DNA from: Podarcis pityusensis
Lineage: Eukaryota
NCBI GenBank assembly: GCA_964106645.2
Contig: OZ067047.1
Direction: 5' to 3' (one strand)
Length of the DNA: 64,000 nucleotides
Of the stretch, positions 32,030 to 55,330 are shown piece after piece. The notes beneath the pieces are model-generated. The model made no database searches. It was given only the letters and a program-made list of their open reading frames with translations, and was not told the origin of the DNA. The first letter of the stretch is position 1. Every line of letters starts with the position of its first letter. A program made the translations under genes and the position numbers.

Positions 32030-32107
32030 TTCTTGTTTCTTGTTTTCCTCCTTTAAAAACTAGGTGTGTCTTACGGTCAGGTGCATCTTATAAAGCGAAA
32101 AATATGG
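32030..32107 (+). mobile_element. Isolated right end of the same Tc2-like family as 52785-53783
   Basis: aggtgtgtcttacggtcaggtgcatcttataaagcgaaaaatatgg+TA aligns with that element's right terminus. Confidence 0.65.
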
Positions 32108-32665
32108 TAGATTTTATCTATCTATCTGTATATCATTAATCAACAGACAGGACGAGTGGAGCAGGCAGAAATCCATTGTCCAAAGTTACCCTAACTTTGT
32201 AACTTAGTATTCATTTATTTCACATATTTATATTTATTTATTGCTTTTTTGGATTGCGGAGAAGAACAAAATACAAAGCTAGTATAAAACAAAATCAATT
32301 TACAACATGCAAGCATAGAAGTCATACAGACTTTGAATCCCATCAAGGATGTTGATTTCTTTTGTTCGTGTTCTCTAAGGATGTTGATTTCTGCATTTTG
32401 TTGGGTATGTTTTAAAATTAGGGTGGTGAGCTGTGGCCCTTCAGATGTTTTTAGTCTGCATCTCTTGATTTTCTGGCTGGGGCTGAAGTTGGAATCCAGC
32501 ATTTGGAAGGCCACAGGGTACTCATCCCTGTTGTCATCAGAGCGACTATTCTGCAGATACTTACATAGTTCACTCGCACCTGTGTCATTCAACGAATGCT
32601 TAACTTTTTTGCATTCTTCTTTGAAGCTTGAGATAATAATCAAATCTTTTTGAACTGGTATACAG

Positions 32666-51390: not shown

Positions 51391-51726
51391 GGACGCGGGT
51401 GGTGCTGTGGGTTAAACCACAGAGCCTAGGACTTGCCGATCAGAAGGTCGGCGGTTCGAATCCCTGCGACGGGGTGAGCTCCCATTGCTCGGTCCCTGCT
51501 CCTGCCCACCTAGCAGTTCGAAAGCACGTCAGAGTGCAAGGAGATAAATAGGTACTGCTCCGGCGGGAAGGTAAACGGCGTTTCCGTGCGCTGAAGTGAC
51601 ATAGTCATGCTTGCCACATGACCTGGAAACCGTACGTCGGCTCCCTCAGCCAATAAAGCGAGATGAGCACCGCAACCCCAGAGTCGGCCACGACTGGACC
51701 TAATGGTCAGGGGTCCCTTTACCTTT
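51391..51726 (+). mobile_element. Full-length Sauria SINE inserted in an L2 fragment (51200-51390)
   Basis: Near-identical to the 24935 copy; ACCTTT tail; TSD-like taaaagcagtcat/taaacacagtcat. Confidence 0.9.
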
Positions 51727-52784
51727 AAACACAGTCATGAGAATTTACACAGATTCATGGGGGTTATGGATCTTTCAAAATGTGTAGATCGGCAATTAGC
51801 TGCAGTTTGAAATACCATATCAGTTGAGAGTCCTGTTGACTTCAGGCCCTCCGCCTGACCAGTCTTCTGATCCCTCAGGTCTATTCTTCCAACAGAAAGG
51901 CCCATTAGTTGTTAATAATGTATCTACTTAGGTAAATAGAAGGACTTGCTGATTTTACTCTCTGTTCTTCAGTACAAAGTACACTGGCTTATAATAAGTG
52001 GAATATCTGTTGTTTTTGAAAAGGGCAAACTGTCAAAGGTTCTTGAGCTGAATTTGATATTCTGCTTCCTTGCTTGAGAGGCCAGGCAACCCTCATCCAT
52101 CTTCCTCTCCCCATAAACCTAAGGGAGAATTGGCAGGATGCAGTTATATGACTTGCTAGGTGGGACTGTGTGTGAAGAATCTCAGTACCTAAGGTTCTGT
52201 AAACTTAATGGCTTGTGCTCCCCCCCCCCCAAATATATTTCTGAAACACAATCCTATCTAGTTATCTTTTTGTGTTATATGGTTTGCTGCTTAAATAACA
52301 GTTGAAACCAATCATGTTGTTTAAATAAAAATAAGCAAAGGCAGCCATGTTGGTCCATAAGACACTCCCCTCGCAACTTCCATAGTAAAGAAATACCTTT
52401 TTAAGACCAACCAAAATGTAACAAAATAATGGGCAAGCTTTTGGGTTCTCCAGCATTCTTCATAAGCTGGATGTGGGCGAGAAAAAGGCTTGCTTGGTGC
52501 TGAAACTACAGTGTCTGCACATTGGCCTCCGACCTGAGATGGGGTATGAAAAGAGATAGTGGGCTTCATATCCAACTGGGGAGACGGGGATGAAGAAACA
52601 CACAGTGGCTAAAAACACTAGTATTTTTGCAGCCCTGCAAGAAAGAACATATATCTGAGCATGCAAATTTATTACACCCCTCTTTCCCTTTTAACTTCTC
52701 CTCCAGATATCCTTTCCCCAGACTATGTAATTCCCCAGTCTGATTTGGGATATCATAAATAGCCATGATATCCCAATATGGGTA

Positions 52785-53783
52785 CCGTATTTTTCGCTCC
52801 ATAGGACGCACTTTTTCCCCTCCAAAAATGAAGGGGAAATGTGTGTGCGTCCTATGGAGCGAATGCAGGCTTTCGCTGAAGCCTGGAGAGCGAGAGGCAT
52901 CAGTGCACACCGACCCCTCTCGCTCTCCAGGCTTCACGAAGCTGGGAGTTCCCGCGGGCTCACAAGGCTTGCAGGCAGCAGCCTGCAACCCCGGCGAGTG
53001 TCCGCAAGCCTTGCGCGCCCGGCAGGAGGTCCCGCCAAGCGCGCAAGGCTTGGGGCAGCAGCCTGTCGCCCGAAGCATGGGGAGCCCTCCGGAGGGCTCC
53101 CCGTGCTTCGGGCGAGTGTCTGCAAGCCTTGCGCGCCCGGCAGGAGGTCCCGCTGAGCGCGCAAGGCTTGGGGCGGCAGCCTGTCGCCCGAAGCACGGGG
53201 AGCCCTCCGGAGGGCTCCCCGTGCTTCGGGCGAGTGTCTGCAAGCCTTGCGCGCCCGGCAGGAGGTCCCGCCGAGCGTGGGAGGCTTCGGGCGGCAGCTT
53301 GTCGCCCGAAGCACGGGGAGCCCTCCGGAGGGCTCCCCGTGCTTCGGGCGAGTGTCTGCAAGCCTTGCGTGCCCGGCAGGAGGTCCCGCTGAGCGCGCAA
53401 GGCTTGGGGCGGCAGCCTGTCGCCCGAAGCACGGGGAGCCCTCCGGAGGGCTCCCCGTGCTTCGGGCGAGTGTCTGCAAGCCTTGCGCGCCCGGCAGGAG
53501 GTCCCGCCGAGCGCGCGAGGCTTGGGGCTGCAGCTTGTCGCCCGAAGCACGGGGAGCCCTCCGGAGGGCTCCCCGTGCTTCGGGCGAGTGTCTGCAAGCC
53601 TCGCGCTCCCGGTGGGAGGTCCCGCCGAGCGCGCGAGGCTTGGGGCGGTAGCCTGCAGCCCGAAGCACGCGAGGCTTGGGGCGGCAGCCGCGGGGGGGGG
53701 AATAATTTTTTTTATTCATTTCCCCCCCCAAAAAACGAGGTGCGTCCTATGGGCCGGTGCGTCCTATAGAACGAAAAATACGG
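52785..53783. mobile_element. Non-autonomous Tc1/mariner (Tc2/pogo-like) DNA transposon
   Basis: TA target duplication on both sides; 27-bp TIR ccgtatttttcg(c/t)tc(c/t)ataggacgcac with 2 mismatches; no transposase. Confidence 0.88.
52993..53669. repeat. CpG-rich 118-bp minisatellite, ~5.7 copies, built around a 50-bp palindrome
   Basis: Units start at 52993, 53111, 53229, 53347, 53465 and 53583. Confidence 0.95.
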
Positions 53784-54300
53784 TAATCCATGCTACCTCA
53801 TCCCTGAACCCATAGCACTCTTAGTCCCCTGGGGTTTCTGTTTGGGGGAGGGGGGTCAACAACCAGCAGCTCATGGACTAGATCTGACCCTATGGCAGGA
53901 CTATGTTCAGCTGCCAATCTAGAGATAAGCATGGTGTTTGGAAAGAACATGGCAGCTGTTATGGGAAACCTTTGTGGGAGATGGGGTTAGAAACACCTTT
54001 CATCTCCAACGACTATCTGGCAAAAGAAAGTCTCTGACCAGGGTCTTAGAGTGGCTGATTACAAACTGCTAATAATTTTATTTAGTGCTGCCCACACCAG
54101 TGGTTTCTGAGATCACTTGTTTTGCTGGTGCCACACACGCTTGTGTTGTCCACTGTCTTGGCATGGTTTCACCCCTTTCTGCACCTTTTTTGCCATTTTT
54201 TTCTTTCGTAGTTTTCATCCTGAATTTATACTGTTTCTCTTTTCCCTCATTTTCCCCATCCATCTTACCTCCCCCCACCCTCATTACCTTCATCTGGTAG

Positions 54301-55143: not shown

Positions 55144-55330
55144 GGTTCCTTGAAAAAAGAATTCCCTCCAAATGTGGGAGGCAGTGATGTCTGCTACTTC
55201 TGCCACAAGCGTGTCTACGTGATGGAAAGACTGAGTGCTGAAGGCAAATTCTTCCACCGCAGCTGCTTCAAATGCGAATACTGTGCTACAACCCTGCGCT
55301 TGTCCTCTTATGCCTACGACCTGGTGGATG
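55144..55330 (+). CDS. MICAL3: MICAL3 coding exon 16 (LIM domain: [14 protein letters not shown]), 187 nt
   Basis: ctttag|GGT...GATG|gtaagt; LIM Cys/His spacing. Confidence 0.96.

Follow-up and report, generated by a model that had tools for sequence, protein, structure and literature searches.

The miDNA4-Xt element of Xenopus tropicalis is a Tc1/mariner-type MITE that carries one or a variable number of tandem units, according to the covered sections of reviews (PMC12628747, PMC12054243, PMC9659126). In the sections covered for Xmix and Xstir, also from Xenopus, the tandem unit derives from internal MITE sequence and a stem-loop replication model is given (PMC12628747, PMC9659126). DTC84 of the clam Donax trunculus is described, in the part of the paper covered, as a MITE cassette with one to five core repeats, ordered variants and a palindrome in each unit, every element being unique (PMC3879986). 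These are the respects in which the lizard element described here resembles them. As for its ends, the closest described group is Passer, of the pogo superfamily, whose ends begin with CCGTA and whose insertion produces a TA duplication in the accounts covered (PMC7386202, PMC9976928). The lizard Passer ends in the covered part of Table S1 (PMC9976928) show the same CCGTA/TA arrangement, are near-identical and match those of our element; the 5' part shown there for the P. muralis element also holds repeats, as judged by eye. Moreover, template switching in hairpins has been described as giving multi-base compensatory changes, two-step repair of pairs and loop inversions (PMC8794818, in part).

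Here, we analyzed a 64,000-nucleotide stretch of Podarcis pityusensis DNA (the window) in which a tandem array of hairpins had been placed inside a DNA transposon by a first-pass annotation. This placement was confirmed, as the array lies in an element spanning 52785-53783 that has terminal inverted repeats (TIRs) and TA on both sides. The TIRs start with CCGTA and are 27 bp long, 25 of the 27 bases matching. Since exons for a MICAL monooxygenase domain (21.3-28.4 kb), a CH domain (33.1-34.0 kb) and a LIM domain were found by Pfam, all on the + strand, the element lies in an intron of a MICAL-family gene, presumably the paralogue MICAL3. A stop-free frame of 336 codons (52759-53766) runs through the element; no Pfam match was found for it, and it is probably a by-product of GC richness. 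The same intron holds, at about 51500-51730, a SINE-like insertion that we liken to the Sauria SINE, and a right end at about 32070-32109 of the window belongs to an older element from the wider family of the transposon described here. The features are as follows.

52783..52784, no strand: TA target-site duplication, left copy; a single TA stands at the empty site in run X5
52785..53783, + strand: non-autonomous DNA transposon of 999 bp without transposase, assigned to Passer (pogo superfamily) from its ends, TA flanks and autonomous relatives
52785..52865, + strand: left TIR (27 bp) and the adjoining subterminal block, in which the end motif recurs in inverted orientation at 52845-52863; 81-91% identity to nine autonomous left ends
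52877..52936, no strand: hairpin H1, a 60-bp near-palindrome with 4 mismatches; also present in the autonomous copy L213; in 14 relatives the centre is inverted
52937..52992, + strand: degenerate first unit, from alignment to the unit (head of 211 versus 235 bp)
52993..53669, + strand: tandem array with 5.7 copies of a 118-bp unit made up of one B hairpin and one A palindrome (57- and 61-bp sub-periods; TRF)
53066..53115, no strand: palindrome A1, whose single mismatch is a C-to-T change at a CpG, from the palindrome check
53123..53170, no strand: hairpin B of unit 2; the other B hairpins start at 53005, 53241, 53359, 53477 and 53595
53184..53233, no strand: palindrome A2, perfect over 50 bp, from the palindrome check
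53302..53351, 53420..53469 and 53538..53587: palindromes A3, A4 and A5, identical to A2
53740..53783, - strand: right end, with the end motif twice in tandem, including the right TIR (53757-53783); autonomous copies have the same two-copy layout
53784..53785, no strand: TA target-site duplication, right copy, on the same evidence as the left one
55144..55329, + strand: LIM-domain exon of the host gene, downstream of the element (Pfam)

The array was reported by TRF with 94% matches, and its sub-periods suggest that the 118-bp unit is a pair of related hairpin halves. It comprises five whole A palindromes and six B hairpins, the sixth palindrome being truncated, and its units differ pairwise by 1-9 bases. 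The loop-less 50-bp palindrome had been recognized in the first pass, and we find it perfect at 53184, 53302, 53420 and 53538 and with one mismatch at 53066. The second hairpin, credited there with 14-bp arms, is perfect in units 1 and 2, but units 3 to 6 carry 4, 1, 1 and 1 mismatches, respectively. A third near-palindrome, H1, had been missed. Elsewhere in the 64-kb window, the longest perfect palindrome has arms of 8 bp. The array is indeed GC- and CpG-rich (74% GC and a CpG observed/expected ratio of 0.88, versus 43% and 0.27 for the window), but the surroundings, which had been called AT-rich, are ordinary for the window, with flanks of 42-44% GC. The fold of unit 2 gave z = -7.7 and that of the palindrome with its flanks z = -9.9, and 0 of 200 shuffles folded as well. 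For the whole array, the predicted RNA fold is very stable, with inter-unit stems of about 50 bp. In the window copy, 24 bp are missing from the first B-type hairpin, leaving the 211-bp head in place of 235 bp; the centre of the first palindrome is absent throughout the subfamily and whole in older relatives.

To place the element, a decayed transposase reached through the BrkDBD domain (one of two weak matches) led to 38 matches, and open frames of 424-425 aa were present in 13 of the 22 examined. From 10 regions with intact-looking autonomous copies (L205-L214), we obtained nine elements with both ends, of 2.4-4.2 kb; L210 was excluded because its protein start was not located. Both ends of the window element align to these nine at 79-91%. 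The two transposases that were scanned matched BrkDBD, HTH_Tnp_Tc5 and DDE_1, the BrkDBD score of L213 (G000:C1:128373700-128379700) being 21.2 against a cut-off of 23.4. The autonomous transposases have a DD35D arrangement, with the second and third aspartates 35 residues apart, and L212 lacks the first catalytic aspartate. By eye, the left end of L205 closely matches the Podarcis muralis Passer element in the covered part of the published list (PMC9976928, Table S1), a likeness indicative of a lacertid host. Judging from ends, length, domains and DD35D spacing, on which the assignment rests, the window element is almost certainly a non-autonomous derivative of Passer, and the intact Passer transposases of this genome are the likely source of its mobility. 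Two pairs of autonomous copies encode identical proteins, which shows recent activity of the family; it may still be active.

Several further observations concern these relatives and their neighbors. The 5' regions of L207, L208 and L211 contain a second array, of 223-230 bp in 3-4 copies, that adjoins the transposase start and seems to contain part of another small repeat. A second, large family of pogo type (L101-L130) has many open frames of about 575 codons among 150 scored DDE_1 matches, and its ends are unrelated. When this abundant DDE_1-positive family, which we take to be Tigger from its end motifs, was considered as the partner of the window element, CCGTA terminal pairs were found in 0 of the 30 best of the 150 scored loci. 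The family of the window element may already be catalogued in Repbase or Dfam, where such ends are, we believe, labelled TcMar-Tc2. Our literature search, which covered papers, found no description of this lizard family. One candidate description, PMC10058329, concerns another element, judging by the part of it covered.

Next, the subfamily to which the window element belongs was characterized. The exact 41-base left end occurs in 256 genomic copies and the exact palindrome 723 times genome-wide; the exact 14-base family ends number 17,467, versus 34 in the control, which corresponds to about 8,700 elements. Of the sampled elements, 85 of 86 were complete, and TA stood on both sides of all 85. 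They carry 0-19 palindromes (n = 86), the two without any belonging to sister subfamilies. Because loci L001-L060 were chosen by similarity and are therefore biased, we also used the set from contigs 1 and 2, which was not chosen by array; it has 0-14 palindromes, with a median of 4 (57 distinct of 58 exact left ends, L076 having been removed from the counts as a duplicate of L077). Element length is 482-2086 bp on contigs 1 and 2 and reaches 2674 bp in the whole sample. A symmetric target preference beyond TA was also observed: the fifth base ahead of the element is A in 60 of 85 cases, and the fifth base behind it is T in 66 of 85. In L099 (G000:C19:9880000-9887000), about 3.4 kb of inserted sequence containing a long T run, probably a retroelement, splits the left end.

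The subfamily is young, as the first-pass annotation had proposed for this non-autonomous element. Besides the 256 exact left ends, the mean divergence of standard-length heads from the majority is 0.44%, 29 of 70 being identical to it, and the insertion site is empty in a related organism. Here, a 727-base contig in run X5 (organism C) joins both flanks across a single TA, and this reading of an empty site comes from X5 alone of four runs, the flanks being poorly covered in X1, X2 and X4. Like a MITE, the subfamily is non-coding with many homogeneous copies, as seen in its left ends, its low head divergence and the lack of a Pfam match in the window copy. However, it departs from the short uniform length of a few hundred base pairs, since the array makes its length variable; the element works like a MITE yet exceeds the usual size. 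Finally, transitions at CpG sites reached 4.7 per site, versus 1.0 at other C/G sites, in per-element counts that include inherited changes. This excess suggests germline methylation of the elements.

Array length proved far less stable than the sequence around it. All 82 arrays analyzed were distinct (L070 and L096, from sister subfamilies, L099, with its large insertion, and L093, whose right end was not called, were left out). Length polymorphism had been anticipated, and between loci it holds, since unit number differs strongly, from 1 to 19 palindromes. The subfamily thus combines constant flanks with variable core units, the arrangement of tandem-repeat-carrying non-autonomous transposons. 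Even copies with identical 235-bp heads (n = 29) have 1-12 palindromes, and variant units are shared within sublineages, the first unit usually being of its own type. As variants are shared by sublineages while identical heads carry different arrays, the arrays move with the element and afterwards are remodelled faster than by point mutation. The same behavior was seen in autonomous copies. In one pair with identical transposases, unrelated arrays at the same subterminal place have a 91-bp unit repeated 6.7 versus 4.7 times, and in a second such pair a 112/113-bp unit is repeated 8.1 versus 3.2 times. The 91-bp unit is weakly folded (DNA fold of about -14 kcal/mol), five of 20 further family members, taken as paired ends at the beginning of contig 1, have tandem units of 79-154 bp, and L070 has an imperfect 117-bp homologue of the unit in 10 copies. 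Perfect palindromes are therefore unnecessary for array growth, because weakly folded, unrelated and imperfect units also expand or vary. As a separate observation, L076 and L077 (G000:C1, about 136.79-136.80 Mb) lie about 17.7 kb apart in an inverted duplication that includes one family member; no mismatch was found over the compared stretch, array included, so the pair is uninformative on allele change.

Sequence comparison relates the unit to hairpins that lie in the 5' region of an autonomous copy, L213. Over the first 157 bp, the head of this copy is 91% identical to that of the window element, and its 5' region has a 108-bp repeat in 2.7 copies with looped versions of both hairpins. Among the short relatives, some carry a single loop-less palindrome with arms of 18-25 bp and others two or three units. 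When the window palindrome was compared with the second hairpin of L213, there were 9 differences in the left arm and 8 in the right, and all 8 on the right lay opposite one on the left (hypergeometric P = 1.2e-5, for a post hoc comparison with a cousin rather than an ancestor, and a P that ignores CpG mutability). In this comparison, 6 of 24 pairs were swapped for other Watson-Crick pairs, 3 mismatches were closed and none was opened; 3 of the 9 changed pairs are at the outer edge of the arm. At one arm pair, a non-standard left base was present at 25 sites: 10 had C:G, 6 a change of CpG type, 7 a mismatch, 1 T:T and 1 G:T, the mismatch being A:G in all four that were fetched. The same arm pair has the mirror form C:T in one relative and A:T in the subfamily of the window element. 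In older relatives, and also in L213, H1 has complete or almost complete symmetry; its centre is inverted in 14 copies, probably by one event, as all share one extra base. In other family members (L131-L150), interiors were seen to be mosaics of recurring GC-rich hairpin modules whose order and orientation shift, and L137 has a 99-bp unit with another perfect, loop-less palindrome of 46 bp.

Such changes are nevertheless rare among young copies. No new two-sided change was found in 183 variant palindromes, five two-sided cases being the older terminal form, none of 524 B loops was inverted and no symmetrised H1 was found in the genome. Taken with the single H1 flip event, these counts indicate that arm correction is rare. 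The symmetry of the hairpins would have come from template switching, which we consider probable on the pattern of the paired changes.

Overall, we propose that the element is a recent, gene-less Passer derivative whose array slips in length while it is recopied, and whose palindrome was perfected by occasional template switches; we give this reading a probability of about 0.65. Cut-and-paste excision would leave a gap that is refilled by copying a sister or homologous element. During this copying, single-stranded GC-rich hairpins with direct repeats on either side might cause the polymerase to slip, so that whole units, or sometimes one hairpin, would be gained or lost. On rare occasions the opposite arm or strand could be copied, and a mismatch would be repaired, a loop removed or the centre of a hairpin flipped. 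An altered hairpin would spread if that copy founded a subfamily, and the copy in the MICAL intron would be a methylated, neutral passenger. A broader version, that Passer interiors are rewritten at each copying, slippage and template switching building, perfecting, flipping and multiplying hairpins without RNA selection, is speculative and in our estimate rather unlikely to hold.

That the array is an ordinary unstable minisatellite, changing length in place after insertion by slippage, unequal exchange or cruciform breakage while transposition merely disperses it, is an alternative that we take seriously, although we would not bet on it. GC-rich minisatellites and perfect palindromes are unstable, and arrays are shorter in older-looking copies, those with more substitutions in head and tail (rho = -0.40, p = 0.006, n = 46); per-unit divergence is unrelated to array length (rho = -0.03). 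Private variants were present in several units of one copy in 8 of 55 cases, which, like the shorter diverged arrays, fits change in place, and the 57-bp palindrome half was cleanly lost in three units. However, array variants follow the sublineages of transposition, and deletion of palindrome centres is uncommon, as 424 of 439 units retain all 118 bp and 258 of 441 palindromes match exactly. Moreover, since the weak 91-bp unit and the imperfect unit of L070 vary or expand as well, cruciforms are unnecessary. We put the odds that length changes mainly during copying slightly above even. Selection at the level of the element could instead keep the hairpins symmetrical, for example if a GC-rich or folded interior aided excision, synapsis or gap repair. 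The compensated pairs between subfamilies would agree with this, as would the perfect arms of at least 9 bp in 18 of 20 other family members (a count without shuffle control) and the arrays of 1-5 in the sublineage with the older terminal hairpin (n = 8), versus a median of 5 in the rest (n = 46; p = 0.016). We nevertheless find it improbable, as the interiors are unrelated mosaics, mismatched forms founded sublineages, 83 of 86 sampled copies have the mismatch in H1, and selection on pairing does not predict inversions or loop loss.

A host function for the array as double-stranded RNA, edited by ADAR or cut to small RNAs, is very unlikely. The array does lie within a transcribed intron, its predicted RNA folds with their long inter-unit stems are very stable, and microRNAs derived from MITEs reportedly exist (Made1/mir-548). 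Against this, the insertion is one of hundreds, and its recent origin and absence from a related organism make a host role unlikely; the 23-bp stem, closed by a 4-nt loop, is shorter than expected of a Microprocessor substrate, and all 27 Rfam matches fell below the gathering score and were judged to be generic hairpin scores. Incidental editing is plausible and would not amount to function, and the effect of the array on the host is probably neutral. Still less weight is due to two ideas about satellites, namely that the element took one up from the host, or that it has by now given rise to a free one, the latter having been suggested in the first pass. Capture has been proposed for miDNA4 in the covered part of one review (PMC12628747), one array reaches 19 palindromes, the longest found, and 256 ends with 2.6 exact palindromes per element predict about 665 palindromes, compared with the 723 found. 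The difference is slight, and the ends of some elements are inexact, so there is little room for free arrays in the assembly. The suggestion of a satellite was not borne out, as 50 of 50 listed exact palindromes (contig 1 to 73.4 Mb) lie inside 12 listed elements and no free array without transposon ends was seen in the assembly. Capture, in turn, is argued against by the kinship of the unit with single and doubled hairpin modules of the family itself. In the assembly, the array is thus a dispersed minisatellite and not a free satellite. Finally, GC-rich palindromic repeats pose difficulties in sequencing, and the locus with its array is not spanned by any short-read contig, but an assembly artefact is hardly credible: the units differ from one another, 82 other arrays show lineage-specific variant orders, and contigs from four of four independent runs cover the unit. 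The doubt on this point raised with the first annotation is thereby answered.

For the host gene, the insertion is probably of little consequence. Its interest is that expanded arrays occur in one genome together with mismatched intermediates, single-unit forms and the autonomous relative. The origin of a palindromic minisatellite within a transposon can therefore be traced stepwise, and the hundreds of loci make it possible to test by genotyping whether change occurs during or after transposition. The more than 700 perfect, GC-rich 50-bp palindromes are also candidate fragile sites and markers of insertion or length. As a warning, paired changes in stems can arise in sequence without sign of RNA function. 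If interiors were indeed rewritten at copying, the roughly 8,700 copies would amount to a natural replicate experiment on neutrally arising compensatory changes, and would keep supplying a vertebrate genome with new perfect palindromes and minisatellites.

Compared with the systems described above, the window element shares with Passer (PMC7386202, PMC9976928) the CCGTA ends, the TIRs of about 27 bp and the TA duplication, and its genome holds 425-aa DD35D relatives. It differs in lacking a transposase, whereas the published accounts, as far as covered, concern autonomous elements (PMC7386202, PMC9976928); the Passer literature, with the covered part of its supplement, yielded neither non-autonomous derivatives nor hairpin arrays. 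In the covered sections on miDNA4, the element is AT-rich (63%), has one unit in 61% of copies and carries a unit thought to have been captured (PMC12628747, PMC12054243, PMC9659126), whereas our subfamily has an array of 74% GC, a median of 4 palindromes and a unit traceable to hairpins of its own family. DTC84 is described in the part covered as Pearl-like, with an AA duplication, a 156-bp unit and a 12-nt palindrome (PMC3879986); the window element has Passer ends, a perfect 50-bp palindrome and a unit that is almost all hairpin. Xstir also forms free tandem arrays, as reported in the covered sections (PMC12628747, PMC9659126), and none was seen for the family of the window element. The compensatory multi-base changes, two-step pair repair and loop inversions recall the template-switch hairpins, which the covered part of that report describes in RNA genes under selection and in human variation (PMC8794818); here they are found in the interior of a multi-copy transposon with no known RNA role. 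Non-autonomous transposons that carry tandem repeats are thus already known, and this one stands apart in that it is Passer-derived, GC-rich and almost entirely hairpin, that its origin can be traced and that arrays are also present in its autonomous copies.
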